From Microcystis aeruginosa NIES-843 (GTDB taxonomy: Bacteria; Cyanobacteriota; Cyanobacteriia; Cyanobacteriales; Microcystaceae), in assembly GCF_000010625.1 (NCBI RefSeq), contig NC_010296.1, positions 4,380,001 to 4,412,000 on the forward strand: a DNA stretch of 32,000 nucleotides, read 5' to 3'. Below the pieces are notes generated by a model. The model was not told the DNA's origin and did no database searches. It saw only the letters and a list, made by a program, of their open reading frames with translations. Positions 364 to 30,611 of this stretch are shown here, piece by piece. The number at the start of each line of letters is the position of its first letter. Within the stretch, counting starts at the first letter, position 1. Position numbers and translations under genes: made by a program.

Positions 364-1264
364 TCAGCAAGCCCTAATTACGAAAGTTCCAGGATTTACA
401 CTTAGTAGAGTTGCAGCAATCGCTAAAACTCTCAGAGTACCATCGGACAACAAAGGAGCATCTATCTGATGTTCTTTGTTCCCAAAAGACTCTATTAGTT
501 TCACCATAACATCCTTGCGGTCTGTAATGATAAAGCGAATATCGGTAATATCCTGTTCTGGTAATGAACGAATGAAGTCAAGCAACTTGTTTTTTTGAGT
601 CTCTCCCTGCTGACAAACTGCGTAAAGAACACTAGAAAGGTTAGAGCCATCTTCTTTAATATCATCATATTTAGCGTAAGCATAATCCCGCATTACTGCT
701 GGACGAGGATCAAGAAAGACAATATTTCTCAAGGTTTCTCGAATTACTTTAGTAACTGCTGGAATAATTTTTTGTGATTGAGTATGAGTTTGCTGGAACC
801 GACTGGGAGTTTCCAATTGATAAAAAATGGCTTGTCGGTTAGAGCAAGGTATGTGGGGCTTATTTCCACCTGTCTTAAAATTGTTATACATCACCCTAAT
901 TTCATCGGTGTGTGAGTTGGGAGCGCATCAATTTTGTAAAGTATTAATTCCTGATCTTTACTAGCTTTACTGACACTTTCTCCGCTGATAATAAGTTGGT
1001 CTGATAATAGCCCAATCTCAATCTCGAAATCAGTCCAACCGTCAGGAGCGTTATCAATGTGTGTTCCCAAGGTAAAATACTGTTTTTCTGCACTGAAAAG
1101 ATCGATCGCTTGTCCACGGGCAATTGCATTACCGCTTTGAATGTTGCGTTCAATGTCATCTAACCTGCTGCCTTTCGCTAACCACGAAAGTAAGCGAATT
1201 GCTTCTAGTGCATTACTTTTTCCTGACGCATTAGCACCGATTAAAAAGGTGATGGGTGCTAGAG
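364..1264 (-). pseudogene. ABC/AAA_21-like ATPase, disrupted (frameshifted, IS-interrupted, 3'-truncated)
   Basis: Track ORFs 891..1271 and 364..894 are two frames of one gene. The N-part ITFLIGANASGKSNALEAIRLL carries a Walker A. The C-part DAPLLSDGTLRVLAIAATLL is ABC-signature-like. Lesions: a frameshift near 895-960, the 5' end severed by the IS at 1265, and no Walker B (ends ...SVNPGTFVIRAC*) next to the transposase tail at 2..316. Confidence 0.75.
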
Positions 1265-3252
1265 CCCGCATTTCTCACAAAAAGTACGATCACCAACCCC
1301 CGAAGCCTTACAAAATCTGGGTTTTGACTGGGTGATCGCCTTGTAGCAAAAACGACAGTGTGTTGTTAGGATTCAACTTAAGCTCATCATCAATTAGACC
1401 TTGAAAAAAGAACAAATTTAAAATGCGTATTTTTAGGTTAATTAGTTGATAAAGTCTCAATTTTAAGTAGAGAATGAAGTCAAAAGCTTGCTATAATTTA
1501 ATCATTAAAACTATTTAAAGTATGTCAAGTTTATGACTCCTAGTTCAGACCAGTCTCGACTCAATCAATTAAATTTTGGAAACCTCAATGGAAGACAAGT
1601 AATCGCTAATTTTGAGGGAGAAAAAATCACCTCAGATGCAGGAATTATTTTGATGGCAGAGTTAGACCAAAAGCTAAAAATAACGGCTCGGTTTGCCGAA
1701 TGTTTTCGAGATTATCGAAATTCATCCTATCTAGATTATTCAGTTCATGAACTACTCGCACAAAGAGTTTATGGGATAGTTTTGGGATATGAGGATGTCA
1801 ATGATCATGATAAATTACGTCATGCTCCAGCTTTAGCAATAGCATTGAAAAAACTAAATTTTATTGACTCAGCCCAAGCAAATTTAGCGGGAAAAAGTAC
1901 AATTAATCGACTAGAATATTGTCCGGAAACAGTCATCAATCAAGAGAACAGTCGTTACCATAAAATCGAGCCTAACCCCAAAGAAATTGAAAAAGCTTTT
2001 GTGGACATCTTTCTAGAATCCTACAAAAAGCCACCGAAACCAATTATTTTAGACATGGATGTCACCGATGACCAAGTGCATGGAAATCAAGAGGGAGCGT
2101 TTTTCAATACTTATTATAAAGGAGTGTGTTATGCTCCTTTGTATATTTTCTGTGAGCATCATTTATTAGTAGCTAAACTCCGGTCTTCTCATGTAGATAC
2201 TGCTGGGGGAGCATTAGAAGAATTGCAGCGAATAATCGGTATAATTCGAGAAAAATGGTCAGATACGCAGATATTAGTACGAGGAGATAGTGCCTATTCC
2301 CGTGAAGATATCATGAAATTTTGCGAAAGTCAAGCAGGAGTTGATTATGTTTTAGCAATGGCAACGAATAGTCAATTAAAATTACGAGCGACCGATGTAA
2401 TTGAGAAAGCTAAGGCAGATTACGAGCAAAGACTTCAGCCAGTTACTGAATTAATGGAGACGTTATTTTCTCCCGATGAAGAGTTAGGAGAATTGGCGAA
2501 ATTGGTACCAGAATCGACTTGGTATCGTTCCCTATGTTATCAAACCCAAAAATCCTGGAGCCGTTCAAGAAGAGTGGTGACAAAAGTTTGTCCTGGTAGT
2601 GAGGGCGTAAAAATTCGCCACGTTGTGACTTCTTTACCTGCATCAAAGATTCCCCCATCTAAACTTTACACTGAAAAATATTGCCCCAGAGGTGAGAGGT
2701 CAAATCGAATTAAAGAGCAACAATTAGACTTATTTGCTGACCGGAATTCGACACAGACATTTGAGAGTAATCAATTAAGACTTTGGTTGTCATCAATGGC
2801 TTATGTTTTAATGCAAGCTTTTCGTCAAAATTGTTTGGCTAAAACTTCTTTTGCCAAAGCGACAGTGGGAACAATTCGCCTTAATTTCCTTAAATTAGGA
2901 GCTAGAATTACTGTTAGTGTCAGAAGAATTTTAATCGCAATTGCCAGTTCTTGTCCCTATCAAGATATTTTAGCGATAGCTTACTCTAGAATTCAAGCGA
3001 TAGCGGGAACTGGATAAGTTGAAGAGTTTTCAAAGATCATTAAATAGTCTTAAAAATGGCTGCTTATAAATTCAGCTAACTTTGTCGTGAACATTTTCCC
3101 TAATTGACGGAATTTTTCCAGTAATTCAGGAATTTTTTGATTAGTTTAGTCAGATTATTCCTTGATAACTAAGCGGGTTTCTCTTATTTTTGAAAAACAC
3201 CAACTTTTAACCTCCAAATTAGGTTCTTAATTCAGTTTGTGAGAAATGCGGG
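1265..3252 (+). mobile_element. IS1380-family insertion sequence, apparently intact (1988 bp)
   Basis: Perfect 17-bp terminal inverted repeats CCCGCATTTCTCACAAA (1265-1281) and TTTGTGAGAAATGCGGG (3236-3252). Flanked by a 5-bp direct repeat TAGAG (1260-1264 and 3253-3257). Removing the IS plus one TAGAG restores the ATPase reading frame; compare the uninterrupted paralog GCTGCTAGAGACAAGG at 5255-5270. Confidence 0.9.
1533..3017 (+). CDS. IS1380-family DDE transposase
   Basis: Intact 494-aa ORF between the IRs. The N-terminal block GEKITSDAGIILMAELDQKLKITARFAECF...LLAQRVYGIVLGYEDVNDHDKLRHAP is the hallmark region of IS1380-family transposases. The 5-bp TSD fits that family. Confidence 0.85.
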   Translation: MTPSSDQSRLNQLNFGNLNGRQVIANFEGEKITSDAGIILMAELDQKLKITARFAECFRDYRNSSYLDYSVHELLAQRVYGIVLGYEDVNDHDKLRHAPALAIALKKLNFIDSAQANLAGKSTINRLEYCPETVINQENSRYHKIEPNPKEIEKAFVDIFLESYKKPPKPIILDMDVTDDQVHGNQEGAFFNTYYKGVCYAPLYIFCEHHLLVAKLRSSHVDTAGGALEELQRIIGIIREKWSDTQILVRGDSAYSREDIMKFCESQAGVDYVLAMATNSQLKLRATDVIEKAKADYEQRLQPVTELMETLFSPDEELGELAKLVPESTWYRSLCYQTQKSWSRSRRVVTKVCPGSEGVKIRHVVTSLPASKIPPSKLYTEKYCPRGERSNRIKEQQLDLFADRNSTQTFESNQLRLWLSSMAYVLMQAFRQNCLAKTSFAKATVGTIRLNFLKLGARITVSVRRILIAIASSCPYQDILAIAYSRIQAIAGTG

Positions 3253-3312
3253 TAGAGACAAGGTTGCCTCCTGATAGCTTTTGAAATTCCGAAGAGTCAC
3301 CGATGTTAACAT
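3253..3312 (-). pseudogene. 5' end of the IS-interrupted ATPase gene
   Basis: The reverse strand reads ATG (3312-3310) MLTSVTLRNFKSYQEATLSL. This joins in frame to APITFLIGANASGKS at 1264 once the IS is removed. It is about 95 percent identical to the paralog start at 5319. Confidence 0.85.
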
Positions 3313-3999: not shown

Positions 4000-4053
4000 T
4001 TATGAAATATGAAACTAGAGGCAAAGTCAAAATTAATAATCGTCTTAATTCCA

Positions 4054-4404
4054 ATGAAATTAAAAGATATTGTCAACAAAGTCAAAATAGATTCTAGAAA
4101 ATTAACCCAATATGCTCTCAATTTAGACAATCCAAAAGGATTAAATAAAGCCATCATGTTTCAACGCCACTTAGGATATACTCAAGATAATTATGAGCCA
4201 CTTCTACAACAAATCGCTAACAAATCCCTTGAAGCAAAAGCTGTTTATCAAAGTACAGATCGACATGGCAAACGCTATCAAGTTGACCTAGAAATTACAG
4301 GAATTGAACCAGGGCAACAAGAAATAGTGAGGACTGGATGGATTGTTGAGCCTGATAGTGATACAGCTAAATTAGTAACTTTATATGTGAGAAAAAGACC
4401 ATGA
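4054..4404 (+). CDS. DUF6883-like protein (putative toxin-antitoxin-type partner)
   Basis: ORF 4009..4404. I prefer the ATG at 4054 (MKLKDIVNK...). The motif SRKLTQYALNLDNPKGLNKAIMFQRHLGY resembles the DUF6883 N-terminal signature. The stop overlaps the next start (ATGA at 4401-4404). Confidence 0.6.
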   Translation: MKLKDIVNKVKIDSRKLTQYALNLDNPKGLNKAIMFQRHLGYTQDNYEPLLQQIANKSLEAKAVYQSTDRHGKRYQVDLEITGIEPGQQEIVRTGWIVEPDSDTAKLVTLYVRKRP

Positions 4405-4709
4405 TTAAACCAGAATTATTTGACCTTGTGGAATTATTAGTTGACTTGCCTGAACATAACTTAATAATGGGAGAACAAGGGACAATTGTTGAAGACTACA
4501 ATGATGGTTGTTACGAAATTGAATTTAGTAATGATCTAGGGGAAACTATCGCCCTTTGTTCTCTCCCAATGCAGCAATTTATTGTCATCTGGAAAGCTCA
4601 GAACAAAACTTGGTTATCTTTAACAGAAAAGCTAACAGCTTTAATCGATAAATTACCCAAAGAAAAGCAACAAAAAGTTTTAGATTTCACCCGCTCTTTG
4701 TATCAATAA
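4401..4709 (+). CDS. DUF4926-like protein
   Basis: 102-aa ORF. FDLVELLVDLPEHNLIMGEQGTIVEDYNDGCYEIEFSNDLGETIALCSLP matches the DUF4926 pattern (D.PE..L..G..GTIV....YEVEF). Translationally coupled to the upstream ORF by a 4-nt overlap. Confidence 0.65.
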   Translation: MIKPELFDLVELLVDLPEHNLIMGEQGTIVEDYNDGCYEIEFSNDLGETIALCSLPMQQFIVIWKAQNKTWLSLTEKLTALIDKLPKEKQQKVLDFTRSLYQ

Positions 4710-4893: not shown

Positions 4894-5150
4894 TTGAACC
4901 TAAAAGGAACCTCTATTCAAGGCTATCGACACCTAGAAAATATCGGTATATTTTGACGAATTGAATCAAAAAATAAAAAAGCAACCTGTCCTCGTTGTGG
5001 GTTAGAGAGCGATAAACTACACCAAAATCATCGACATTTAGTCAAAGATTTACCGCTCTCAGGCTAACCAGTGTACCTACAAGTTAATCGTCGTCAATTT
5101 AAGTACGTTAATTGTCAGAAACCCTTTAGCAAAGAGTTAGATTTTGTCGC
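4894..5150 (+). pseudogene. ISL3-family transposase N-terminal fragment
   Basis: One frame reads LNLKGTSIQGYRHLENIGIF*RIESKNKKATCPRCGLESDKLHQNHRHLVKDLPLSG*PVYLQVNRRQFKYVNCQKPFSKELDFV. This is the zinc-finger N-terminus typical of ISL3 transposases, with two in-frame stops. It ends abruptly at the junction with the ATPase fragment. Confidence 0.7.
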
Positions 5151-5319
5151 CAATGTCATCTAACCTGCTGCCTTTTGCTAACCACGAAAGTAAGCGAATT
5201 GCTTCTAGTGCATTACTTTTCCCTGACGCATTAGCACCGATTAAAAAGGTGATGGCTGCTAGAGACAAGGTTGCCTCCTGATAGCTTTTGAAATTCCGAA
5301 GAGTCAGGGATGTTAACAT
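5151..5319 (-). pseudogene. Second copy of the ABC/AAA_21-like ATPase, N-terminal 56 codons only
   Basis: Track ORF 5137..5319 reads MLTSLTLRNFKSYQEATLSLAAITFLIGANASGKSNALEAIRLLSWLAKGSRLDDI. Nucleotide homology to copy 1 (1150-1264 plus 3258-3322) stops at about 5151, where the ISL3 fragment begins. Confidence 0.8.
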
Positions 5320-5766
5320 ACTTTTAAATTAAGGTATTTAAAAACATCTAAAGTAAGGGGATTAAGGTTTTATCAGATTCTTTATTCCAGCTACGGCACA
5401 ACCTAGCCCAGCTAGTGGGACTTAGGCGTTTTCGGTCAGCAAAAAAGGCTCAAACCATTACGGGACAAAGGGTTAACCTCGATTTATGATTTTCCTTGAT
5501 ATATCTGGGTTTCAGCGATTTTGGGCTTCTCGAAGTAAATCCCAAGCGGGGATTGGAGTTGAGGCTTTTCTCGATTTGTTTTTTGTCTAAGTCCCACTAG
5601 ACCCAGTGTAGCACCTCCAAGATAAAGCGTGGGTTGTACGAAAAATCTTATGAACTGATTTTGCACCTCCTTATCAGCTTTATACGTTTTGGCAGCGGTG
5701 GTAGAATCGGGCCAAGATTTAAGCGATCTTTACGCGCAGAAAACGGGTTTCTTCAAGAAACCCGTT

Positions 5767-6720
5767 GGTAATGATTCGGTAGTAGTGGCGTAGCTCTCTT
5801 GCTTACCTGGTATGAATTGTGTAAAATATTTATTAATAAAAATAATTGGCTCGAATCAGTCTTTAAACCTCTAGCTTGATCATGACTTTTCTGATAAATA
5901 TCTTTTTCTGGCTCCTGTCTGGCTTACTGAAATATCAGTCTAGCACCGAACAAAGTACCCCCTTCACCTCCGTTCCCCTGTCCTAATTGTGGTTCTCACC
6001 ATACGATCAAGAATGGTTCTATTCATAATGGAAAACCCAAACGTCAAGGTAAAGAATGTGGTCGTCAGTTGGTGATCAATCCCACTAATAAAACCGTCTC
6101 TGACGAAACCAAACAATTAATTGATAAACTCTTGCTCGAACGAATTTCCTGACGAGGAATTGCTAGAGTAACAGGGGTAAGTTGGTCATGGTTACAAAAT
6201 TATGTCAACAATAAACTGGCGGCTGTCCCCCGTCAAATAAAGGTTTCGGACAAACCAAAAGCCAAAAGGTAAATTGGTTAGAGAATGTGATGAAATGTGG
6301 TCTTTTGTTTTTTCTAAGACGATAAAGGTCTATATTTGGCGGTTAATTGATAGAAATACAAGGAAAATTATTGGTTGCTATGCGCGGAGATAGGAGTCGT
6401 CAATCAGCCAAAAAACTTTGGGCTAGTTTACCAGGTGTTTACCGACAATGTGCAGTTGCTTACACAGACTTTTGGGAGTCATATAAGACAGTAATTCCCA
6501 GTAAACGTCATCGACCAGTCGGGAAAGAAACTGGTCAAACTAATCCTATTGAAAGATTAAATAATACCTTTCGACAAAGGATTTCTCGGTTGGTGAGAGA
6601 GAGTCTATCTTTCTCTAAAAAAATGGAGAATCACGTTGGGGCTGTTTGGTATTTTATCCATGACTACAATGCACACCTGGCAAAGGATTAAGCCGCCATC
6701 ACTACTACAGAATCACCACC
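5767..6720 (+). mobile_element. IS1-family element, degenerate
   Basis: Imperfect terminal inverted repeats: GGTAATGATTCGGTAGTAGTGGCG (5767-) versus the reverse complement of the right end, GGTGGTGATTCTGTAGTAGTGATGGC (-6720). Inside are InsA-like and InsB-like coding remnants. Confidence 0.75.
5931..6691 (+). pseudogene. IS1-family transposase (InsA/InsB-like), inactivated
   Basis: The InsA-like part reads CPNCGSHHTIKNGSIHNGKPKRQGKECGRQL...ERIS*RGIARVTGVSWSWLQNY, with an in-frame TGA. The InsB-like part reads ECDEMWSFVFSKTIKVYIWRLIDRNTRKIIGCYA. A 1-nt frameshift near 6378-6382 then leads into GDRSRQSAKKLWASLP...NPIERLNNTFRQRISRLVRESLSFSKK (track ORF 6347..6691). Confidence 0.8.
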
Positions 6721-6722
6721 TA

Positions 6723-6867
6723 AATCCTTATCTGGCAAGAGACTTAATTGATTAGTTCGCTCTAGAGCAAAAACAATTGATAAAAATCGCCAAATGTCTT
6801 TCTCTATAAGGGTTCCATCCCTTATAACCCCCGTCCATTGCATAACACAAACCGAAGAACCGAATTT
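6723..6867 (+). repeat. 145-bp dispersed repeat, copy A
   Basis: AATCCTTATCTGGCAAGAGACTTAATTGATTAGTTCGCTCTAGAGCAAAAACAATTGA...ACAAACCGAAGAACCGAATTT recurs at 23457-23600 in the same orientation with roughly 90 percent identity. No TIRs and no ORF. It abuts the IS1 right end. Confidence 0.85.
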
Positions 6868-6953
6868 ACCAATGTCAAGGTCGATGATCGCACTAAAATA
6901 AGCTCTCTCAGTGTTAGTTATTATTACCCGTTCGGATCAGCTTAGGAAAAAAC

Positions 6954-6982
6954 TTGAGAAAAGTTTCATATTAGATTATAAT
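6954..6982 (+). promoter_or_regulatory. Sigma70-type promoter of the ATPase/DUF4435 operon
   Basis: TTGAGA (6954-6959), a 17-nt spacer, then TATAAT (6977-6982). This predicts a TSS near 6989-6990 and a UTR of about 27 nt before the ATG at 7016. Confidence 0.6.
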
Positions 6983-7015
6983 TTTCGTTTGAGACTGTTA
7001 TATGAGATTAAAGGT

Positions 7016-8446
7016 ATGTCTCGATTTATTAAGCGTTTAGAAGCGATTGGAATACATGGAAGATTTGATATTAATCTTGATTTTCAAGATGGAGTTAATA
7101 TTATTCATGGAAGTAATGGCACAGGCAAAACCACTGTATTGCATATTCTTGCTAATGCCGTCAACGAAGATTTTAGACGTTTTGGCTATTTAAAATTTCA
7201 AAAATTAACCATTACATTAGATGATGATACGAAAATATTGATAGAACAGCATAATTCTCCTCAAGAAGATATAAAAGAAACAGTAACAACAGTCTTTGTT
7301 AATCATGAAAAAGTCGATTCTTACCCTTTTACAAAATTATTAGAAGAAGAAAAGCAAAAAGAAAATAGCGAAATTTTCTTATCTGCACTTTATTATCGAT
7401 CATCTTCTAGGAAAAAGCAAGATATTGACTTAAAAGCAACTTATTTCCCTGCTTTTAGAACAATGATTGAGGCATGGGCTACCTTAGATGAAAATGAAAT
7501 TAGACATTTTGCCCGAAGATCACCTAATTTTAGCAAAGTTCTCAGAAGTTCCGCCAGATCAACCGAATTAGCTCGGATTCTATTTGGGAAATTTGTCCCT
7601 AGACTTGAGTATCCTTCACCGATAGAAATAGAAGAACATATTAATTCAGAATTAACAGAAGCTCAATTAAAAATTGCTAGTCTTGATAGAAATTTGCTTT
7701 CACAAGCTTTTATTCAATTTTCTCAAGCTATTTCTCAATCATCTGAGACAGACGATAATACAAAAGAGCCGGAAGAAGTTATTACAGAAATAATAGAACT
7801 TTCGGAAAAATTGCAAAATTCATCTTTTCAAGTTAATCGTAATCAATCAGATGATGTCTATAAACAATTAATAGAACAGTTGAAATCGTTTGAATCAGAT
7901 CCAAAATACAAAACTATTGCTAGTAGAGTTTTATCAGTGTATAAAAGTTCTCTTCAACAAAGACTAGATGAACAAATAACAGCTTATTCTAGTATTGAAA
8001 GATATCTTGAATCAGTCAATGGATTTTTAGAGAGAAAGCAATTAAAAATAGGTTCTACAAGCTTACCTCAAGGCAGAGGGAAATTAGGTGTTAAAATTGG
8101 TGATGAAGAAGCTATTCATAGTCTGCAAATTTTGTCTTCTGGAGAAAGACAAGTCGTAGGTTTAATTTATGCCGCCAGTCACATGACAAGTGGTAGGGTT
8201 GTCTTAATTGATGAACCTGAAATTTCACTTCACATCGATTGGCAACGTAAATTATTACCAGAAATGGTTAAACAACTTGATGAGAAACAACTCATTATTT
8301 GTACTCATTCTGCTGTAATTGCATCCAAATATCGAGAGAGAATGATAAAACTTGAACTACAACCAACGGCAAAGGCTAATATAAATACTGACACTCTTGA
8401 AAGTGATACACTAGATAATGATTTGTTGGACGACATTCCCTTTTAA
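7016..8446 (+). CDS. ABC/SMC-type ATPase with central helical insertion (AriA/AbiLi-like candidate)
   Basis: Track ORF 6911..8446. I prefer the ATG at 7016 because the promoter lies inside the GTG extension. Motifs: Walker A GSNGTGKTT (res 32-40 from ATG 7016), YFPAFR Q-loop-like, LSSGERQ (nt 8132-8152), Walker B VVLIDEPEISLH, CTHS H-loop. About 140 aa of helix-prone sequence separates the two half-heads. Confidence 0.8.
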   Translation: MSRFIKRLEAIGIHGRFDINLDFQDGVNIIHGSNGTGKTTVLHILANAVNEDFRRFGYLKFQKLTITLDDDTKILIEQHNSPQEDIKETVTTVFVNHEKVDSYPFTKLLEEEKQKENSEIFLSALYYRSSSRKKQDIDLKATYFPAFRTMIEAWATLDENEIRHFARRSPNFSKVLRSSARSTELARILFGKFVPRLEYPSPIEIEEHINSELTEAQLKIASLDRNLLSQAFIQFSQAISQSSETDDNTKEPEEVITEIIELSEKLQNSSFQVNRNQSDDVYKQLIEQLKSFESDPKYKTIASRVLSVYKSSLQQRLDEQITAYSSIERYLESVNGFLERKQLKIGSTSLPQGRGKLGVKIGDEEAIHSLQILSSGERQVVGLIYAASHMTSGRVVLIDEPEISLHIDWQRKLLPEMVKQLDEKQLIICTHSAVIASKYRERMIKLELQPTAKANINTDTLESDTLDNDLLDDIPF

Positions 8447-8469
8447 AAATTTAGATAATTATCGACTTT

Positions 8470-9480
8470 ATGAACGGATTACAGTTAACTCCTGAAGAAT
8501 ACGTTACTGAAATAATTATGTCACAGGATCGGTTTTTATTGCTAGAAGGAGCCGATGATGAGGATTTTTTTACTATTATTTGTAATCTTTTAAAAAAAAA
8601 TGAAGCTCAGATTTCAGCAGAAAAATTATATTTATTGAAAAAAATTATTATTGATACTGCGGAGCGAATACAAGGAGAATTAGGAAATAGAGCTAAGATA
8701 GAAAAAATCTGTGATTTAGTTGCCCAAGAGCCGCCAGATGTTAACAATAGAGTTTTGGGCTTTGTTGATCGAGAATTTAGAGAATTTGAATGTAGCAATG
8801 ATTTAAAAGATCATATTAAAACTCATAAAATTAACAAGAGATTAATTTGGAGTAGAGGTCATTCAATTGAAAACTATTTTTTTGAAATATCAACGTTGAG
8901 AAAGGCATTCAACGATTATTTAGTCAGTAGTTTTTATCAAGAAGCATTTGAAATTTTTGAATCTAAATTTGAGCATACTCTCAGAATAGCTTGTGCTTTG
9001 AGTTTAGCAGGTTCATCAGAAGAGTTAGTTAAGCCTATTGCTAAATCAGTAAATTGGCAGTGTATAGATATCACCTCCACATCTCTGAAAATTGATTTAG
9101 AAGAATGGGGTAAGATACTGAATAAAAAACACAAACTAGATCAACTTCGGATTCAAAAGCTATTTAATAAATTTGAAGTCTATTTGAATATGACCAATCA
9201 ATGTGACATTGAAACCTCAAGATGGTTATCTCATGGACATATAGGATTTAATTTTATGTTTGTTGTTTATAGTAAATGTCTTTATATAACAGCCTCAGAC
9301 TTATCGGATCCTCGGAAAAATCCTAGTCAAGAAGCCGAGAAAGTTAATCAATATAAAGACACACGCTTCCGCACAGTAGCAAATGCTTGGGTTAGAAATC
9401 AATCTGTAGAATTTCAAGGTAATAACCTTAATGATTTTCCAATCAAGTGTTTTTGGATGTTAATCAACGATTTTCAATAA
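8470..9480 (+). CDS. DUF4435/Toprim-like (OLD-type nuclease fold) protein, AriB/AbiLii-like candidate
   Basis: 336-aa ORF starting 23 nt after the ATPase stop. Motifs LLLEGADDEDFF (E26), LGFVDREF (D100, E102) and RGHSIENYFF (E134-N-Y) match the glutamate, acidic pair and ENY pattern I associate with DUF4435. Confidence 0.65.
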   Translation: MNGLQLTPEEYVTEIIMSQDRFLLLEGADDEDFFTIICNLLKKNEAQISAEKLYLLKKIIIDTAERIQGELGNRAKIEKICDLVAQEPPDVNNRVLGFVDREFREFECSNDLKDHIKTHKINKRLIWSRGHSIENYFFEISTLRKAFNDYLVSSFYQEAFEIFESKFEHTLRIACALSLAGSSEELVKPIAKSVNWQCIDITSTSLKIDLEEWGKILNKKHKLDQLRIQKLFNKFEVYLNMTNQCDIETSRWLSHGHIGFNFMFVVYSKCLYITASDLSDPRKNPSQEAEKVNQYKDTRFRTVANAWVRNQSVEFQGNNLNDFPIKCFWMLINDFQ

Positions 9481-9490
9481 CAAATGATAG

Positions 9491-9517
9491 AAAAAAAGGG
9501 AGGTCTAAGAACCCCCC
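9491..9517 (-). terminator. Intrinsic terminator of rbcS
   Basis: The minus-strand RNA reads GGGGGG-UUCUUAGA-CCUCCC followed by U7. This is a 6-bp GC stem with one G-U, starting about 31 nt after the rbcS stop. On the plus strand the stem has an A-C mismatch and no U-run. Confidence 0.65.
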
Positions 9518-9547
9518 TCAAAAGTTAATAATTAGATGACAGCCAAA

Positions 9548-9883
9548 TTAGTAGCGGCCGGCATTGGGTTTATGAACAATAAAGCTCATGGTTTGACATT
9601 GTTTGATGTTGTCAAAAGCGATAACGCGGATGTAGCAATCAGAATACTCGGTGCGGCACTCGCGAACTTCATTAAGAACTTCTTGGGGACCAGAAACAGA
9701 GAATAAAGGCAGTTTCCACATCGTCCAATGATAATCCGCGGGTTTGGGATCTTTTTCAAATTCCACAGCAGGAATATAACCCTGATCGATCATGTATTGA
9801 ATTTGTTTAGCAATTTGTTGATCGGTGAGGGGGGGCAAGTAGGAAAGAGTTTCGTAACGCTTCTCTTTAGGTAAAGTTTTCAT
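9548..9883 (-). CDS. rbcS: RuBisCO small subunit
   Basis: 111 aa. [43 protein letters not shown]...WTMWKLPLF is a canonical cyanobacterial RbcS. Positioned after rbcL-rbcX. Confidence 0.97.
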
Positions 9884-9898
9884 GGGTTTCTTGATTCC

Positions 9899-10297
9899 TT
9901 ATGGGTTGGGTAGATCATCAACATCGAGATTTAATTCCGATGTCTCTGGTTGACTTATAGCAGTACGGGTGAGACGTTCCAAAAGTTGCCGACGATGTTC
10001 GGTATTGTCATTAATAATTCCCGTTTTTACCATCTCTGGCAAGAACTCTAAAACCTGTTCGGCTAGATGTTCTCTTACCGTCATGATCCGCAAAACTAAC
10101 TCTTTATTCTCAGTCATCAACCCCGCAATATAGGCCTCGCCATCCTGAATGGAATGGCTAGAAGTATAGTGACTCAGCCAAATAGCTAAAGTCGGATTAG
10201 TTTCTGACAATTGATCGATAATCGTGCGAACCGCTTGGTAAGTTAGGTAACTTTGTAAGACTTTCGCGGTATCTTGAACAACTTTTTTCGGATACAT
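9899..10297 (-). CDS. rbcX: RuBisCO assembly chaperone RbcX
   Basis: 132 aa. TAKVLQSYLTYQAVRTIIDQL is the RbcX signature. Located between rbcL and rbcS. Confidence 0.93.
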   Translation of the reverse strand: MYPKKVVQDTAKVLQSYLTYQAVRTIIDQLSETNPTLAIWLSHYTSSHSIQDGEAYIAGLMTENKELVLRIMTVREHLAEQVLEFLPEMVKTGIINDNTEHRRQLLERLTRTAISQPETSELNLDVDDLPNP

Positions 10298-10427
10298 TTT
10301 ATACAGTTTTCAGTTATTGGCTAGACAGTTATCAGTGTTGAAATTCTAGCGACTGCTTCCCGATTTTGGGCAAGTCCCCGGCATTATTTTCCACCGATAA
10401 CTGCTAACAACCTTCTGAAGGGCTGTA

Positions 10428-11843
10428 TTAGAGGGTATCCATAGCCTCGAACTCGAATTTGATTTCTTTCCAGAGTTCGCAAGCGGCAGCCAGTTCAGGA
10501 CTCCAACGGCAAGCTTCCCGGATAACGTCGTTACCTTCGCGGGCCAAGGAGCGTCCTTCGTTACGAGCTTGGATACAAGCTTCCAGAGCCACACGGTTAG
10601 CGGTTGCACCAGGTGCGTTACCCCAGGGGTGGCCGAGGGTTCCACCACCGAACTGTAAGCAGGAATCGTCACCGAAGATTTCCACCAGCGCGGGCATATG
10701 CCAAACGTGGATACCACCGGAAGCAACGGGCATTACCCCGGGTAAGGAGGCGTAGTCTTGGGTGAAGAAAATACCACGAGCGCGATCTTCTTCTACATAG
10801 TCTTCACGCATCAGGTCAACAAAACCCATCGTGATCCCGCGTTCACCTTCGAGTTTACCGACAACGGTTCCCGAGTGCAGGTGATCACCACCAGAGAGAC
10901 GTAAGCACTTAGCTAAAACGCGGAAGTGGATACCATGATTTTTCTGACGGTCGATAACCGCGTGCATTGCCCGGTGAATGTGGAGCAGTAACCCTTTGTC
11001 GCGGCAGAATTTAGCCAGGGTGGTGTTAGCGGTGAAACCACCGGTGAGGTAGTCGTGCATGATGATGGGGGTTTTGATTTCGGCAGCGAATTCAGCCCGT
11101 TGCATCATCTGCTCGCAGGTAGGAGCAGTTACGTTGAGGTAATGTCCTTTAACTTCGTTGGTTTCTGCTTGGGATTTAACGATCGCCTCTTGGACAAAGA
11201 GGAAACGATCGCGCCAACGCATGAAGGGTTGAGAGTTAATATTTTCGTCGTCTTTGGTGAAGTCTAAACCACCGCGGAGACATTCATAAACGGCACGACC
11301 ATAGTTTTTAGCGGAAAGGCCGAGTTTGGGTTTGATGGTGCAACCGAGTAGGGGGCGACCGTATTTGTTTAATTTGTCCCGTTCAACGGTGATACCGTGG
11401 GGAGGACCTTGGAAGGTTTTGATTAAAGCGACGGGGAAACGGATATCTTCTAAACGGAGACCGCGTAGAGCTTTGAAACCGAAAACGTTACCAACGATCG
11501 AGGTGAGGATGTTGGTGACGGAACCTTCTTCAAATAGATCTAAAGGATAGGCAACGAAACAGAAGAACTGGTTATCTTCGTTGGGTACGGGTTCGATATC
11601 ATAACAACGACCTTTATAGCGATCGAGGTCGGTTAAGTTATCGGTCCAAACGGTGGTCCAGGTACCTGTGGAAGATTCCGCCGCTACTGCCGCACCTGCT
11701 TCTTCCGGAGGAACTCCGGGTTGGGGTGTCACCCGGAAGCAAGCTAGTAGATCGGTATCTTTGGGGGTGTAGTCGGGGGTGTAGTAGGTCAGTCGGTAGT
11801 CTTTTACGCCGGCCTGGAAACCTTTGGATTTGGCTTGCACCAT
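10428..11843 (-). CDS. rbcL: RuBisCO large subunit, form IB
   Basis: 471 aa. Contains [24 protein letters not shown], the active-site region [16 protein letters not shown] and [26 protein letters not shown] lies upstream of the ATG. Confidence 0.99.
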
Positions 11844-12394
11844 TGGGATTATTCCTCCATAAACTGCATGATTAGTCGCACCTGTAAAATCTCGCCGTCA
11901 ACCGACATAGATTTTTCTTAAGCTCCTTTCCCCTGCTGCCAGGAGCGAAGTTAGGGAGCAATTTTCACTAATGTTTTTTTCAACTGATCATCTTAACACG
12001 AACTTTATCCTATTCTGATCATTTTTTTTCCCTATCTCTAAAATTTTGATTGTTTTTTTTTCTCGGGGGGATTAGTTTCTTTAATCTGTCGTCATCTAAC
12101 TTTGACAATCTCTACAAAAACACAAAAAAATCAACAAAAATTTACCTGATTGACGCACAGAAAATTCTGCTCATCAGGCTTTGAGCGATTAAAACTACTC
12201 TTTAATTGAGGAAGATTATCAATAATTACAACCTCAAAAAATTGTCGGCAATCGCTAAATATTAACTGGATTTCTAAGCAATTATACCCAGTACCTAGAG
12301 GACAGTTAGACAGCCGTGAACTCTAGATAAATTAGGTCTAATTACTCAGTAATTATTGTTGAGATTTTTGGCTTGTGAACGATTATTTTCCCCT

Positions 12395-13057
12395 TCAAGA
12401 ATTATGGTTATTGTTGCCATTAAAACGATGACGTTCTGGAAATAGCGTGACCAATAACTGATTGATATAGACCTTTCCGACCACCGATGCTTGATTCGGT
12501 CGGTTAGTAGTAGATGCTTGTTCTCTGGTTTCCGCGGGACTGGCCTCGGCGACCATTTCCTCGCTATCCCAAGGACTGGCCACGGTTTCAGCGACCACTT
12601 CCTCCACTGACGGGACTGGGGACACTTGACTGACTACGGGTTCCGGTTCCGGTAAAGGGGGTCTTTCCGGTTCCGATCGGGTCGCTGACACCTCGATGGT
12701 AATTTGACGGGAAGTATCCCCGATCAGGGAGCCAGACGGCACGAGTGACATTGCTGCCACAGAAGCATTAAAAATCGTTGTGGTTGACCCAATACAGGCA
12801 TTTTCACCGATTTCACCCCGACCGACGACGAGAACACCTGTACCTAAAATTGCTCCCGCACCGATAGCAATAACACCCTGATAGGCGGTTAAAATTGTTC
12901 CCATACCCAGGCAAGCACCCGCACCGATAATTATTTGGCTATTGGGGGCTGCTCGGAGAATCACCCCCGGAGCCACGATCGCACTCTCATCAATGGTTAC
13001 ATCACCATTGACATAGAATTCCGAGCGGCTAATAGGTTGAACGGGGGGTAAGGACAT
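12395..13057 (-). CDS. ccmN: Carboxysome assembly protein CcmN
   Basis: 220 aa. An N-terminal hexapeptide-repeat (left-handed beta-helix) region, a Pro/Glu/Ser-rich linker, and a C-terminal amphipathic peptide VVGKVYINQLLVTLFP consistent with the CcmN encapsulation peptide. Follows ccmM. Confidence 0.9.
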   Translation of the reverse strand: MSLPPVQPISRSEFYVNGDVTIDESAIVAPGVILRAAPNSQIIIGAGACLGMGTILTAYQGVIAIGAGAILGTGVLVVGRGEIGENACIGSTTTIFNASVAAMSLVPSGSLIGDTSRQITIEVSATRSEPERPPLPEPEPVVSQVSPVPSVEEVVAETVASPWDSEEMVAEASPAETREQASTTNRPNQASVVGKVYINQLLVTLFPERHRFNGNNNHNS

Positions 13058-13063
13058 AATTGA

Positions 13064-13116
13064 CAGTTATTCAGTGATCAGTGATCAGTGACCAGGGGTT
13101 AGGGGGTAGGGGTTAG
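13064..13116. repeat. Composite heptamer repeat module in the ccmM-ccmN spacer
   Basis: CAGTTAT-T-CAGTGAT-CAGTGAT-CAGTGAC is followed directly by GGGGTTA-GGGGGTA-GGGGTTA (13095-13116). AACACCT x2 lies nearby at about 13149-13163. Confidence 0.85.
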
Positions 13117-13188
13117 AGTTTCGGGTATTTTTCCCGATCCGCCAACACCTAACACCTATCTCCCTTCACCGATCGCCGAGTCCTGAAA

Positions 13189-15147
13189 TTAAGGGCGTTG
13201 AATAATCGATTCGAGAACACGACGTTTCGCTTGGGAGTCAATCCCGATCAGACGAACGTATTCCCCTTGATGGTCGCGCAGACAGGTTTCTAAAGCGGCC
13301 ACCACATCGGATTCGCGACTGCTCTCGATCGGGGTGCAGCTTTGCCAAGAACCGGTTTTAAAACGACGTTTATCCGCGTGTTCACTGCCAATTTTGTGAC
13401 CTTGGTTCAATAAAGAACGAATCTGAGCGATCGTTTCCGCCGTTAAGGTACTGGTTAAAGTGGCAGTACCGCCGCCGGAGGAACTGGAAGCAGAGCTTTT
13501 GAAACTCGGTTCGGCAACGGTGGCGGTTTTACTGCTGCCATTACTACTCACCGAACCATCGGGACGCTGGATCACCGTTTCTAAAACTCGTTTTTTGGCT
13601 TTAGCATCGATACCGAGTAAGCGGACGTATTCGCCGCTATGTTCCCGTAAACAATCTTCCAAAGCAGTAATTACCTCGGATTCGCGATTACTTTCGATCG
13701 GGGCGCAACTCTGCCAAGAACTGGTTTTAAACCGGCGTTTATCCGCGTGTTCGGTGCCGATTTTGTAGCCTTGGGCGAGCAGGGAACGAATTTGAGCGAT
13801 CGTTTCCCCACTTAAGCTACCACTGATGCTATAACTGGCTCCGTTACTAGCGGGGGCGCTGTAGCTGCTGGCTTTGCCGCTGCCGTTACTAGCGGGGGCG
13901 CTGCCGGGGCGGTGAATAATCATTTCGACGACGCGTTTTTTCGCTTGCGGGTCGATCCCGATCAGGCGGACGTACTCATCGCTATTTTCAGTCACGATCG
14001 CTTCAATATCGCGAATGATGCCCGCTTCGCTCTTGGTTTCGATCGCCGGTCCGGTTAACCAAGAACTGGTTTTAAAACGGCGTTTATCCGCGTGTTCGGT
14101 GGCGATTTTCAGTCCTTGGGCCAGCAGGGAACGCACTTGTACGGACAGGTCGGAATGGCCGTTACCGTTGCCATGACCGCCGTGGACGGCGGTGGTGGTG
14201 CGGGCCGGTTCTCCCGGGGTGTCTTCGGGGCGCTGGATAATCATTTCCAGTATGCGCCGTTTAGCGGCGGGATCGACTCCGATCAGGCGGACGTATTCGC
14301 CTTGCAGGTCTCTCAGGGAGGCTTCTAGGGATTGGGATACCTGTTCTTCGCGGCCGCCGTCGATAAAGCCGGCACTTAACCAAGAACTGGTTTTAAAGCG
14401 GCGTTTGTCAGCGTATTCGATGCCGATCTTGTAGCCTTGGGAGAGGAGGGAGCGAACCTGCGCTCGAATGTTTGTATTTAAACTCATAGGTGTCACCGAA
14501 TTTCTATATAGCGTCTCATTAGCGATGTTTATAGCGGCTGCCGGTGGAGGAGTCGCTGGGCTGTGGGCTTTGACCGGGACGCTGGGGGCGAGGTCGATAT
14601 CGACAATGTGACGGGTGAAGGCTCGATCGATTTCTGTGACATCGGGTAAGCGGTCGGCCTGTTGTTGGCTGGTGATCACGGAACCGGATGGCACGAATTT
14701 CCCGGCGGGGATTTCCACGTCTTGAACGAGGGCGTGCATCATGACGATGCAATCGGCACCAATGCGGGCATTAAAGACGGTGGAGCGAAAACCGATAAAA
14801 CAGCGATCGCCCACATAGGCAGGCCCGTGAATGAGTGCCATGTGGGTGATACAGCTGCCCCGGCCGATCCACACCGAATATTCTCGGCCGTCATCTCCCA
14901 CCACACGGCTTTTTTCTAAACCGTGGATGATTGCTCCGTCCTGAATTTTGCTGTCGTCGCCAATGTGAAAGGGGGTTCCTTCATCGGCGCGGATGGAAGT
15001 CCCCGGAGCAATCACCACTCGCGCCCCGATCTCGATAGCGCCACTGAGGTTAGAGAAGGTGTGGACTTTGGCACTCTCGTCTATGCGCGTTTCCTCTGGG
15101 GATTTGGTCCGCTTTTTCGGACTAGCCGCCGTTGTGCGGACGACCAT
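13189..15147 (-). CDS. ccmM: Carboxysome scaffold protein CcmM (gamma-CA-like domain plus four SSUL modules)
   Basis: 652 aa. An N-terminal gamma-carbonic-anhydrase-like beta-helix, then four RbcS-like repeats. Each carries [VI]RSLL.QG.KIG.E[HY]ADKRRFKT[SG]SW and EYVRL[IL]G[VI]D..AK[RK]R. Confidence 0.97.
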
Positions 15148-17536: not shown

Positions 17537-17603
17537 TTCTTTCAAGTCAGAGAATAAATAGCCTAAAATAGAAACCTGCACTCTTGTTTCTGTAGCCAGC
17601 ATC

Positions 17604-18944
17604 ATGAATAAGTCCCCACGTCGTTACCATATCACCACCTTTGGTTGTCAGATGAATAAAGCTGACTCCGAACGCATGGCGGGTATTTTAGAAGATTTGG
17701 GGTTTCAATGGTCTGAGGATGCCAACGAAGCCGATTTAATCCTCTACAATACCTGTACAATTCGCGATAATGCCGAACAGAAGGTGTATTCCTATCTCGG
17801 TAGACAGGCTAAACGCAAACAAACTCAACCCGATCTTACTTTAATTGTCGCTGGCTGCGTGGCCCAACAGGAAGGGGAACAATTATTAAGACGGGTTCCC
17901 GAAGTGGATTTAATTATCGGTCCCCAACACGCAAACCGCTTGGGAGACTTATTACAACAAGTTTTTGACGGTTCCCAGGTGGTGGCCACCGAACCCATCC
18001 ACATCATGGAAGATATCACCAAACCGCGCCGGGATAGTAATATTACCGCTTGGGTGAACGTCATCTATGGTTGCAATGAACGCTGTACCTATTGTGTGGT
18101 TCCGGGGGTGCGCGGGGTGGAACAATCTCGCACTCCTGCGGCAATTCGAGCAGAAATGGCACAATTAGGACAACAGGGTTATCAAGAAATCACCCTTTTA
18201 GGTCAAAATATCGATGCCTACGGACGGGATTTACCCGGAGTGACGGCAAGCGGCCGACATCTGCACAATTTTACCGATTTACTCTACTACGTTCACGATG
18301 TGGCCGGCATTGAACGTCTCCGTTTTGCCACCAGTCACCCCCGCTATTTTACCGAACGTTTGATTAAAGCTTGTCAGGAATTACCTAAAGTTTGTGAACA
18401 TTTTCATATCCCTTTTCAATCGGGGGATAATGATATCCTCAAGGCCATGAAACGGGGCTATACTCAGGAAAAATACCGACAAATTATTGCTAATATTCGC
18501 GATTTAATGCCGGATGCTGCCATTAGTGCCGATGCGATTGTCGGATTCCCCGGAGAAACAGAGGCACAGTTCGAGAATACTTTAAAATTAGTCGATGAGA
18601 TTGGTTTTGATCAATTAAATACGGCGGCCTATTCTCCCCGTCCCGGAACTCCTGCCGCTATTTGGGATGATCAATTAAGTGAGCAGGTAAAAAGCGATCG
18701 CTTACAAAGATTAAATCATTTAGTGGCCACAAAAGCCGCTGAACGTTCCCAAAGATATTTAGGCAGAATTGAGGAAATTTTAGTGGAAGACGTTAACCCT
18801 AAAGATGCTAGTCAAGTTATGGGAAGAACTAGAGGCAATCGCTTAACTTTCTTTACGGGAGATATTGAGGAATTGCGAGGCAAATTTGTTAAGGTTAAAA
18901 TTACCGAAGTCCGTCCCTTTAGTTTGACGGGAGTGATCTTTTAA
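17604..18944 (+). CDS. miaB: tRNA-i6A37 methylthiotransferase MiaB (radical SAM)
   Basis: 446 aa. N-terminal [20 protein letters not shown], the radical-SAM cluster motif [12 protein letters not shown], and a C-terminal TRAM-like region. Confidence 0.93.
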
Positions 18945-19008
18945 TAGTTCACAGTGACCCCTCAGCAGTGAAAAAAGGCAATAGCTATCGGGAATAATTG
19001 GGTACTTT

Positions 19009-19395
19009 ATGGATATTATCGCTATTTTGCAGCAAGATTATCAAAGATTTCCCCTCGATCAAACCTATGACATTTATGCTGATAACGTTTATTTTCAAGA
19101 CCCTCTCAATCAATTTCGGGGGATTAAACGCTATCGGGAAATGATTGGTTTTATGAGTCAATGGTTCCAAGCTATCAAGATGGATGTCCACGCAATTGAA
19201 CAGCAGGGAAATATTATTAATACCCGTTGGACATTGCACTGGATAACTCCTTTACCTTGGCGGCCTCGTATCGCTATTTCTGGACGCAGTGAATTAACTC
19301 TCGATGACAATAATCTGATTATTTCTCATATCGATTATTGGGATTGTTCGCGCTGGGATGTGCTGCGTCAGCATTTACCTTTTCCCGGTTCTTAA
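19009..19395 (+). CDS. DUF2358-like (NTF2-fold) conserved protein
   Basis: 128 aa. YADNVYFQDPLNQFRGIKRYREMIGF...WDCSRWDV matches the cyanobacterial/plant DUF2358 pattern as I recall it. Confidence 0.6.
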   Translation: MDIIAILQQDYQRFPLDQTYDIYADNVYFQDPLNQFRGIKRYREMIGFMSQWFQAIKMDVHAIEQQGNIINTRWTLHWITPLPWRPRIAISGRSELTLDDNNLIISHIDYWDCSRWDVLRQHLPFPGS

Positions 19396-19404
19396 CTAGA
19401 TTTT

Positions 19405-20817: not shown

Positions 20818-20906
20818 TTTTCCTCATCCTCGCCAACTGCTCTGATTATTCTAGCTTTTTTGTGCTGGATTTCATCCCAAACTGAACTTTTTAGCCGACA
20901 ATTCCC

Positions 20907-21131: not shown

Positions 21132-22280
21132 TATAGTTTAAGAGTCATAATTAGAAGCAAAGCACTCATTAAAAACATGATTAACCTAGAATTCACGGAA
21201 GAAGAAAAGAACTCACTGTATTATGAAAGATTTCATCATCCCCATCCCCGGGTTCAACTGAAGATGGAAGTTCTCTGGTTAAAAAGCCAAAAGATACCGC
21301 ACCAAAAAATTTGTCAGTTAGCAGGAATCTCGCCAAATACCTTATTAACCTATCTTCGAGATTATCAAGAGGGCGGAATAGAAAAATTAAAAGAAATCAA
21401 CTTCTATCGCCCTAAAAGTGAATTAGAGTCTCAAAGAGAAACGCTCAAAAAATATTTCGAGAAAAATCCACCAGCCACAATAAATGAAGCTGTATATAGA
21501 AGAGAAGAATTGACAGGAATAAAACGAAGTCCTACCCAAGTGAGAAAATTCTTAAAATCCTTGGGAATGAAATGTTTAAAAATAGGTTCTCTTCCTTCTA
21601 AAGCTGACCCAGATGAACAAGAAGAATACAAAGAAAAAAAGCTAGAACCCAGACTAAATGAGGCTAAAGAAGGAAAAAGGGCTGTTTTTTTTGTTGATGC
21701 CGCTCACTTCGTCATGGGAGCATTTCTCGGTTTTGTTTGGTGTTTTGAGAGACTTTTTGTTAAGTCACCGAGCGGGCGTAAACGCTTCAATGTTTTAGGA
21801 GCATTAAATGCAATAACTCATGAAGTTATTCTGGTTACGAATGACACTTATATTACGGCAACTCAAGTCTGTGAACTCCGGTCAAAAATAGCTGCTTTAG
21901 GACTAATGATTCCCATCACTCTAGTCTTAGATAATGCCCGCTATCAAAAATGTAAAATTGTTGAAGAATTAGCTCTTTCTTTGTCAATAGAACTGCTCTA
22001 TCTGCCGTCTTATTCACCTAATCTAAATTTAATTGAAAGGCTGTGGAAATTTGTCAAAAAGAAATGTTTATATGGTAAATATTATGAAAACTTTTCTGAC
22101 TTTTCTTCAGCCATTTATGAATGTTTGAATGATGCCCATTTGAAACATAAAAAAGAACTGGATTCCTTGCTGACTCTACGATTTCAGAAGTTTAATAAAT
22201 CTCAGATTATGAACGTCTAAAGTATAACCTTTAGCTATTCTTGTTCAACGTCACAGTTATCAATGTGTGCAAGACATTGG
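21100..22280 (+). mobile_element. IS630-family element (boundaries approximate)
   Basis: Contains an intact IS630-type transposase. Imperfect TTGCAC-containing ends lie near 21104 and 22271. The right limit must be before the PEP-CTERM gene stop at 22287. Exact IRs and a TA duplication were not resolved. Confidence 0.5.
21177..22220 (+). CDS. IS630-family DDE transposase
   Basis: 347 aa. An N-terminal HTH region, then the catalytic blocks FFVDAAH, LVLDNARYQK and YSPNLNLIERLWKFVKK. Confidence 0.88.
   Translation: MINLEFTEEEKNSLYYERFHHPHPRVQLKMEVLWLKSQKIPHQKICQLAGISPNTLLTYLRDYQEGGIEKLKEINFYRPKSELESQRETLKKYFEKNPPATINEAVYRREELTGIKRSPTQVRKFLKSLGMKCLKIGSLPSKADPDEQEEYKEKKLEPRLNEAKEGKRAVFFVDAAHFVMGAFLGFVWCFERLFVKSPSGRKRFNVLGALNAITHEVILVTNDTYITATQVCELRSKIAALGLMIPITLVLDNARYQKCKIVEELALSLSIELLYLPSYSPNLNLIERLWKFVKKKCLYGKYYENFSDFSSAIYECLNDAHLKHKKELDSLLTLRFQKFNKSQIMNV

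Positions 22281-30538: not shown

Positions 30539-30611
<73 letters not shown>

Follow-up and report, generated by a model that had tools for sequence, protein, structure and literature searches.

Does the pair of genes beside rbcS in the bloom-forming cyanobacterium Microcystis aeruginosa NIES-843 encode a known type of two-gene antiphage system, or a divergent relative of one? The window analysed here is a stretch of 32,000 nucleotides from that genome (NCBI RefSeq assembly GCF_000010625.1, contig NC_010296.1, positions 4,380,001 to 4,412,000 of the forward strand), and all coordinates below are window coordinates unless a locus is named. A sequence-only reading of the window had proposed an operon of an ABC-type ATPase and a DUF4435/Toprim-like protein, placed it in or near the class of PARIS and AbiL, and suspected an undescribed cyanobacterial subtype. 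We conclude, with a probability of about 0.9, that the pair is a canonical two-gene operon, ariA-ariB, of PARIS (phage anti-restriction-induced system). The proposed family, an ABC ATPase paired with a protein of the Toprim/DUF4435 class, was right; the divergent subtype was not borne out, as both proteins are collinear with AriA and AriB over their full length. The features that make up the operon and its borders are as follows.

6954 to 6982, plus strand: promoter-like site of ariAB, sigma-70 type, TTGAGA-17-TATAAT, the top-scoring site of the region (11/12)
6988 to 7015, plus strand: conserved block TTGAGACTG..ATA[G/T]GAG..AAGG of the 5' untranslated region with the ariA Shine-Dalgarno site, its columns invariant in Microcystis, Pannus and Crocosphaera
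7016 to 8446, plus strand: ariA, the ABC/Rad50-like sensor ATPase of PARIS, 476 amino acids (PDB, Pfam and PADLOC matches)
8470 to 9480, plus strand: ariB, predicted Toprim (DUF4435-class) effector nuclease of PARIS, 336 amino acids (PADLOC, PDB and fold matches)
9496 to 9519, minus strand: hairpin and U-run, the intrinsic terminator of rbcS and the right edge of the variable slot described below (terminator scan and folding)

Identification of AriA and AriB

Both components are identified at the level of sequence and profile, AriB also by its predicted fold, and their catalytic residues are intact. All of the motifs that had been read from the two open reading frames (ORFs) are present at the residues assigned to them. 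In ORF1 these are GSNGTGKTT (with K38), YFPAFR, LSSGERQ, VVLIDEPEISLH and CTHS; in ORF2 they are LLLEGADDEDFF (with E26), GFVDREF (D100 and E102) and HSIENYFF.

A phmmer search matched ORF1 to the AriA of Escherichia coli B185 (8UX9_B and 8V45, 464 amino acids) with an E-value of 1.4e-77, 264 bits and 35.7 % identity. The alignment runs from residue 3 to 450 of ORF1 and from 4 to 443 of the E. coli protein, with only short gaps in the coiled-coil region. By this alignment the Walker A lysine K38 and the Walker B residues D399 and E400 (LID399E400PE) correspond to E. coli K39, D392 and E393. The remaining AriA features are the signature LSSGERQ, a coiled-coil insertion at about residues 200-350 and an acidic tail at 451-476. 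Two Pfam families are matched well above their cut-offs, AAA_15 at 73.6 bits (cut-off 32.1) and AAA_21 at 63.3 bits (cut-off 27), and the best match in PADLOC is the AriA model PDLC04164 (7.3e-26, 89 bits). The next families in the PDB, PtuA, GajA and Rad50, match the P-loop or the C-terminal lobe only, at E-values of 1e-8 or higher. The exact protein is present in public data as BAG04607.1 / WP_002731617.1, under the NCBI name "AAA family ATPase".

The C-terminal tail of AriA (window 8366-8443) differs in length and sequence among the loci L009-L068, and in nearly all of them it is acidic and poor in lysine and arginine. The extreme case is L058, with 27 aspartates and glutamates among 53 residues. 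Passages of the PARIS papers that were found by term searches mention no function for such a tail.

For ORF2, PADLOC returned the AriB model PDLC02983 and no other, at 5.5e-62 and 208 bits, with profile positions 1-233 of 236 covered. Against the solved AriB structure (8UX9_A, 316 amino acids) the E-value was 3e-22, with residues 5-310 aligned to 5-290 at 27.6 % identity. The Toprim site of E. coli AriB is defined by E26, D30, D88, E90 and E122 (PMC11464382). These residues align one to one with E26, D30, D100, E102 and E134 of ORF2, and all five are invariant in a family alignment of 30 sequences. R289 of the E. coli dimer interface is also kept, as R309. An AlphaFold2 model of ORF2 built on 30 homologues was of high confidence (predicted local distance difference test score, pLDDT, 90.8; predicted template-modelling score, pTM, 0.89). 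A Foldseek search of the PDB with this model returned the AriB chains 8v46_D and 8ux9_A only, with template-modelling (TM) scores of 0.81-0.89 and E-values of about 1e-15. The superposition on AriB has a root-mean-square deviation of 2.8 A over about 331 columns. No chain other than AriB appeared at E <= 0.001, the next match having an E-value of 0.4. The exact ORF2 protein is present in public data as BAG04608.1 / WP_012267297.1, named "DUF4435 domain-containing protein" by NCBI.

Operon structure and the start of ariA

ORF and motif checks confirmed two co-directional genes, 23 nt apart, behind a near-consensus promoter, and the description of the locus as a self-contained two-gene operon holds. 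The promoter-like sites of the region number 15 in total, which is at chance level (12.9 +/- 3.3 in shuffled sequence). Pannus keeps the -35/-10 pair and its spacing (TTGAAA-17-TATAAT) despite a diverged upstream sequence.

The longest reading frame of ORF1 opens at GTG 6911 and would encode 511 amino acids, and gene callers often pick this start. A start at ATG 7016 is supported by several observations instead. The promoter at 6954-6982 falls within the 511-codon frame, which favours the downstream start. The alignment with E. coli AriA begins at residue 3, tblastn matches in other and distant genera begin at residue 1, and Pannus ariA has its start codon, a GTG, at the equivalent site. The Shine-Dalgarno site (window 6996-7003) reads AGGAG, 9 nt before the ATG, in the Microcystis loci L010, L012 and L078 and in Pannus and Crocosphaera. 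It reads ATGAG in the NIES-843 window, L011 and L071, an allele class that may translate AriA more weakly.

The hairpin at 9496-9519 falls in the interval that had been given for the defence module. Folding of the two strands assigns it to rbcS as a terminator: on the minus strand it has -15 kcal/mol and a U7 run, and on the plus strand, that of ariB, it has -8.9 kcal/mol and no U-run. At 9481-9547 there is no other hairpin, and ariAB itself lacks a convincing terminator; read-through from the operon would therefore be antisense to rbcS.

The AT-richness of the two genes, earlier judged by eye, was borne out by computation. The GC content is 0.321 for ariA and 0.310 for ariB, compared with 0.423 for rbcS, 0.416 for rbcX, 0.517 for rbcL and 0.432 for the remaining window.

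Distribution and synteny of the gene pair

A synteny scan with one genome per species gave 61 loci that encode an AriB homologue, in Cyanobacteria, Chloroflexota, Proteobacteria, Planctomycetota and others. In 56 of these 61, the gene immediately before ariB, in the same orientation, encodes an AriA homologue. The other five comprise two with AriB at a contig edge (L017 and L037), two whose ariA is broken up or shifted away by about 1.5-2.3 kb (L047 and L060), and one with only a fragmentary ariA match (L069). The identities of AriA and AriB to the window proteins drop in parallel across the loci. The two genes are thus neighbours elsewhere, which the sequence-only reading had proposed as a check on its pairing, and the cyanobacterial host, which it had thought special, is not, as homologous pairs are widespread across phyla.

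Within Microcystis, the ORFs are intact and of full length in dozens of assemblies, and 355 proteins make up the 90 % cluster. The gene pairs of Pannus and Crocosphaera, 72-80 % identical to that of the window, do not lie beside rbcS; the rbcS adjacency is specific to Microcystis. PARIS as a whole has been found in 5.2 % of genomes (PMC9122126). In the incompletely covered literature, we found no specific description of it in Microcystis or other cyanobacteria.

A defence slot next to rbcS and exchange of the cassette

We surveyed the region 3' of rbcS in Microcystis genomes, anchored on the exact RbcS protein of the window. The variable slot corresponds to window 9481-9547 and to about 7337-14336 in each of the loci L070-L079. 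It holds PARIS in L071, L072 and L078 as well as in L001-L012. A GmrSD-type enzyme (HEC-06 in PADLOC, 763 bits) occupies it in L073, L075 and L079, and is fragmented and decayed in L076. In L074, GmrSD is joined by an M78 peptidase and a DUF3368 protein, and HEPN and NsnA-like genes are also found in L079. The slot of L070 and L077 contains non-defence genes. The region 3' of rbcS is therefore a Microcystis defence hotspot, occupied by PARIS, by GmrSD, by other genes or by nothing. This polymorphic setting, with established or candidate defence genes (HEC-06/GmrSD, PDC-M07) as neighbours, also speaks for the identification as PARIS.

Strains without PARIS are homologous to the window as far as one of two points: 9539, which is 9 nt beyond the rbcS stop codon, or 9491/9492, which follows the ariB stop codon by 11 nt and directly adjoins the far side of the terminator hairpin. 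Strains with PARIS share sequence leftward to 6862 or 6720. The slot has one fixed flank, rbcS, and its opposite side is rearranged among strains. These edges define two further features.

6862 to 9491, no strand: PARIS cassette as the unit of exchange in the hotspot 3' of rbcS (left edge 6862 or 6720, right edge 9491 or 9539)
6720 to 6867, no strand: dispersed repeat (about 148 bp) bordering the cassette on the left; another copy, at window 23454-23600, is 90.5 % identical

The repeat lies upstream of PARIS in L001, L003, L006, L007, L010 and L078 and is absent in L009, L012 and L071, which is behaviour like that of a miniature inverted-repeat transposable element. It has no match in Rfam. 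The surroundings of the cassette were also searched for repeats, direct or inverted, as a signature of integration; the matches were short and at chance level only, with no sign of site-specific integration. Homologous recombination in the flanks fits better as the mode of exchange.

The cassette of L001 has no mismatch to the window over 6798-9832, and that of L003 has none over 6798-10604, but the flanking rbcX/rbcL and ccm regions of the same strains diverge by 1.2-3.4 %. The cassette must then have been exchanged between lineages more recently than its flanks diverged. Horizontal acquisition, earlier suggested on the strength of base composition and insertion sequence (IS) debris, is borne out by this identity, which is better evidence than the debris. 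The cassettes of Microcystis fall into at least three allele classes.

Comparable fixed slots with strain-variable defence cargo are the core defence hotspots of Pseudomonas aeruginosa (cDHS, PMC10250203) and the islands of E. coli (PMC10121019). The Microcystis slot differs in its anchor, the cyanobacterial rbcLXS/ccm carbon-fixation cluster. No description of the hotspot 3' of rbcS was found in the literature, which was incompletely covered, so that this is weak evidence of novelty.

Weighing the identification

Several observations weigh against the identification of the pair as a working PARIS system, and they are taken together here. They concern a missing Pfam match, variation within the genus, residues that differ from those of the E. 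coli system, the absence of a phage-borne homologue, and the fact that the locus is known from sequence alone, its antiphage activity being expected by homology.

The first is that ORF2 matches no Pfam family at E <= 1, DUF4435 included; NCBIfam gave no match either. AAA_15 and AAA_21, anticipated in ORF1, were found, whereas PF14491 (DUF4435), anticipated in ORF2, was not, and the sequence-only reading had itself named the lack of a DUF4435/Toprim signal as grounds for giving up its view. The original MacSyFinder rule for PARIS (Rousset 2022) demands that the effector score at least 27 bits against PF14491 (PMC9122126), and ORF2 fails it. However, a Pfam scan of 30 members of the AriB family showed that only 10 match PF14491, with a best E-value of 6.5e-9; DUF3226 is touched by 11 and OLD-like_TOPRIM weakly by 6. 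Since so few relatives are matched and PADLOC, PDB and fold comparisons are all positive, the missing match is a sensitivity limit of one profile and not evidence against homology. As an argument against AriB it was rejected on the same grounds. A consequence is that the original Pfam-based rule would miss an AriB lineage that is common in Cyanobacteria and Chloroflexota.

The second concerns selection. Compared with Pannus and Crocosphaera, the ratio of nonsynonymous to synonymous substitution (dN/dS) is 0.23-0.34 for both genes, which indicates purifying selection between genera. For polymorphisms within Microcystis, the corresponding ratio (pN/pS) comes to about 1-2.4; the same strains give about 0.01 for rbcL and about 0.2 for ccmM (Fisher p = 2e-5 and 3e-6). 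Taken alone, this could reflect relaxed constraint, and the pair could then be a remnant derived from PARIS that no longer defends its host, either drifting neutrally or retained only because it stabilises the island, as an addiction module of the toxin-antitoxin kind. The change of the Shine-Dalgarno site from AGGAG to ATGAG in NIES-843 would fit such a remnant, as would the decay of adjacent defence genes, namely the split of PDC-M07A by an IS in the window (described below) and the fragmented GmrSD of L076. Yet ariA and ariB contain no frameshift or stop codon in any strain examined, their catalytic residues are all intact, and the long-term dN/dS values and the sharing of an identical cassette by diverged backgrounds also speak against decay.

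The variation is, moreover, far from random. Of 57 variable positions in AriA within Microcystis, 46 fall in residues 76-125, 226-325 and 451-476 (p = 2e-11), and the ATPase core is almost invariant. The first stretch (window 7241-7390) has 19 variable sites (p = 3e-6), and its aligned counterpart in E. coli AriA is the central-pore loop, which carries R116 and R119. The second (window 7691-7990), with 18, lies in the coiled coil, and the third (window 8366-8443), with nine, is the tail. Clustering of this kind is the pattern expected of diversifying sensor surfaces rather than of decay, and we consider a defunct remnant very unlikely. A fuller proposal would be that the rbcLXS 3' region is an undescribed core-anchored hotspot in which PARIS alleles are swapped by recombination, with AriA diversifying on its trigger-sensing surfaces (pore loop, coiled coil and tail). 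We put this forward tentatively, as a possibility that we think somewhat doubtful in its entirety.

The remaining points concern mechanism. Work on the E. coli B185 system (Burman 2024, PMC11464382; Deep 2024, PMC10802264; PMC12409363; PDB entries 8UX9 and 8V45-8V49) has described an AriA hexamer-AriB complex of about 425-430 kDa in which R28 and R31 of AriB form salt bridges to AriA. Its triggers are the acidic anti-restriction proteins Ocr, Ptr1 and Ptr2, which act on AriA by way of its positively charged pores and its coiled-coil interface. E. coli AriB cleaves tRNA Lys, Thr and Asn, with K60 and K64 holding the loop (PMC12409363). By analogy, the Rad50-like ABC ATPase AriA of NIES-843, whose coiled-coil bundle is short, would form a hexamer that keeps AriB, predicted to be a two-metal Toprim RNase, inactive. 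Activation would come from an acidic phage protein, for example an anti-restriction DNA mimic, that binds AriA in an ATP-dependent manner; the freed AriB would then dimerise and cut specific host tRNAs in the anticodon stem-loop, so that translation would halt and the infection would be aborted. RNase M5 shares the two-metal Toprim active-site geometry and has served as a mechanistic model for AriB (PMC12409363), but its task is the housekeeping one of maturing 5S rRNA, it has no ATPase partner, and Foldseek did not recover it with the ORF2 model at E <= 0.001.

Many residues to which these steps have been ascribed in E. coli differ in the Microcystis proteins. In AriA, R119, R212, R213, R345 and R346 are replaced by E, T, E, P and Q; R119 is a pore residue, and the other four contact Ocr. 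The pore residue R116 is K113 here. The Ocr contacts are thus not conserved, and the trigger is probably a cyanophage protein other than Ocr. In AriB, the two arginines that bridge to AriA are A28 and E31, so that the chemistry of the AriA-AriB contact may differ or may have co-varied. At the dimer interface F137, K144 and E285 are not conserved, being D149, Y156 and N305. Of the lysines that form the tRNA "tweezer", K60 keeps its charge as R66, and K64 aligns with L71 in a gapped stretch. The details of triggering, sequestration and dimerisation may accordingly not be those of E. coli. A tblastn search of 50,697 phage records with AriB found no homologue. The first 50 kb of the Microcystis myophage Ma-LMM01 contain tRNA-Met only and no rescue-type tRNA for Lys, Thr or Asn.

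Could these differences mark a divergent, undescribed subtype of ABC-ATPase and Toprim pair, with a longer ATPase, an extra helical insertion and an acidic tail? In addition to the altered trigger-contact and interface residues, this would account for the low identity to the E. coli proteins (28-36 %) and for an ORF2 below the detection limit of the Pfam DUF4435 profile. The E. coli pair has a different setting, a P4-like satellite, and the Microcystis pair is chromosomal, in a slot beside rbcS anchored by core genes. Against these stand the same gene order, ariA followed by ariB, and full-length collinear homology with few gaps, protein lengths of 464 and 316 amino acids compared with 476 and 336 here, the shared Walker A, signature and Walker B motifs, coiled-coil insertion, five Toprim acidic residues and dimer-interface arginine, the AriB fold, and the nearly complete coverage of the PADLOC AriB model.

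The three structural oddities are no oddities of this protein. The 45 AriA homologues taken from reference genomes range from 423 to 520 amino acids, with a median of 471, so that 476 is close to the middle of the family. The helical insertion is the normal coiled coil of AriA, whose four-helix bundle defines the protein and mediates hexamer assembly and Ocr binding (PMC10802264). An acidic C-terminal tail poor in lysine and arginine is present in most AriA homologues. Finally, eleven PARIS clades with poorly conserved pore residues have already been described, and their variation was read as adaptation to different triggers (Burman et al., PMC11464382); residue differences such as those found here are therefore expected within PARIS. 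The subtype is largely refuted, and we give it a very small chance, slightly below that of a remnant.

Other defence families combine an ABC ATPase with a nuclease. AbiL (AbiLi and AbiLii) and the PtuA-PtuB pairs of Septu and of retrons resemble PARIS in having two genes, an ATPase of the AAA_15/AAA_21 type and a nuclease effector. AbiLii belongs to the RloB type of Toprim proteins and not to DUF4435, so the earlier pairing of AbiL with DUF4435 was loose; in PADLOC, ORF2 has no AbiLii match and AbiLi is not among the 25 best matches of ORF1. Septu PtuA shares its ATPase lobes with ORF1 (models up to 72 bits, mostly in the C-terminal lobe), although ORF1 reaches 47.6 bits with the NCBIfam PtuA model, whose cut-off is 500, and the effector PtuB is an HNH protein, unlike the AriB Toprim of Microcystis. 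OLD nucleases and GajA of Gabija also join an ABC ATPase to a Toprim nuclease, but in a single polypeptide and with DNA as the substrate. GajA matches only residues 18-65 of ORF1, the P-loop, and Foldseek returned no OLD or GajA structure from the PDB for the ORF2 model. Membership in any of these families is the least probable alternative and can be set aside: ORF1 does match many PtuA models, touches those of LmuB, mad3 and GajA, and is matched by PDB chains of PtuA and GajA at 1e-8 to 1e-5, but these matches are confined to the P-loop or the C-terminal lobe and lie far below the full-length match to AriA, and ORF2, a separate protein, matches AriB alone in PADLOC, with no AbiLii, PtuB or GajB, and AriB alone in fold.

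Neighbouring genes

The presence of IS debris upstream of the operon was confirmed, and the window is rich in IS elements.

6347 to 6691, plus strand: fragment of an IS1 transposase, upstream of PARIS (Pfam 3.6e-11)
21177 to 22220, plus strand: intact DDE_3 (IS630-type) transposase, downstream of PARIS

This debris mainly reflects IS-driven rearrangement of the NIES-843 genome. A block of genes for a MiaB-like radical-SAM protein, DUF2358 and DUF697 lies beyond the ccm genes here (window 17545-20906); in other strains (L001 715-4056, L011 1-323) it is inverted and sits at that end of the rbc-ccm cluster where PARIS lies. Its placement is consistent with a large inversion in the NIES-843 genome.

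The island also contains a candidate system, PDC-M07, of 438 and 153 amino acids (741 and 207 bits). Its ATPase, PDC-M07A, is intact in L071 (438 amino acids, with a PDC-M07B partner of 153). In the window, PDC-M07A (375-1264, minus strand, with a copy of the 5' end at 5151-5325, minus strand) is split by the insertion of a DDE_Tnp_1_4 transposase at 1265-3253 (ORF 1533-3017). The extra copy of the 5' end, 175 bp long and 4 kb away, is a 60-residue ORF with Walker A at 5137-5319.

At 4009-4709 on the plus strand, genes for a DUF6883 protein (131 amino acids) and a DUF4926 protein (102 amino acids) overlap by 4 nt, in a layout like that of toxin-antitoxin pairs. The same pair recurs in this island in L071, L072 and L074 and has no match in PADLOC. 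Rfam and tRNA scans of the window gave a single match, tRNA-Phe at 30539-30611.

Significance for PARIS and for Microcystis

The type, structure and mechanism of PARIS were already known, and the NIES-843 operon adds little that is new to them. Its by-products are modestly interesting: the Pfam gap, the rbcS-anchored hotspot, and the diversification of the sensor within one genus together with recent exchange of the cassette. In Cyanobacteria and Chloroflexota, PARIS will be under-counted by surveys based on PF14491, although the dedicated PADLOC profile finds this lineage easily. The genus offers a small natural experiment on the evolution of the PARIS sensor, in which the ATPase core stays constant, the sensor regions vary and diverged backgrounds carry identical cassettes.

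Microcystis forms toxic blooms, and the susceptibility of its strains to phages is poorly understood. The slot next to rbcS is an easy marker in metagenomes, with rbcS and rbcL as highly conserved anchors. If the tentative proposal of a recombining hotspot with a diversifying AriA is true, transcription of PARIS, which has no terminator of its own, can run antisense into rbcS, and the AriA allele type would be a marker of the cyanophage counter-defence proteins that each bloom strain senses.

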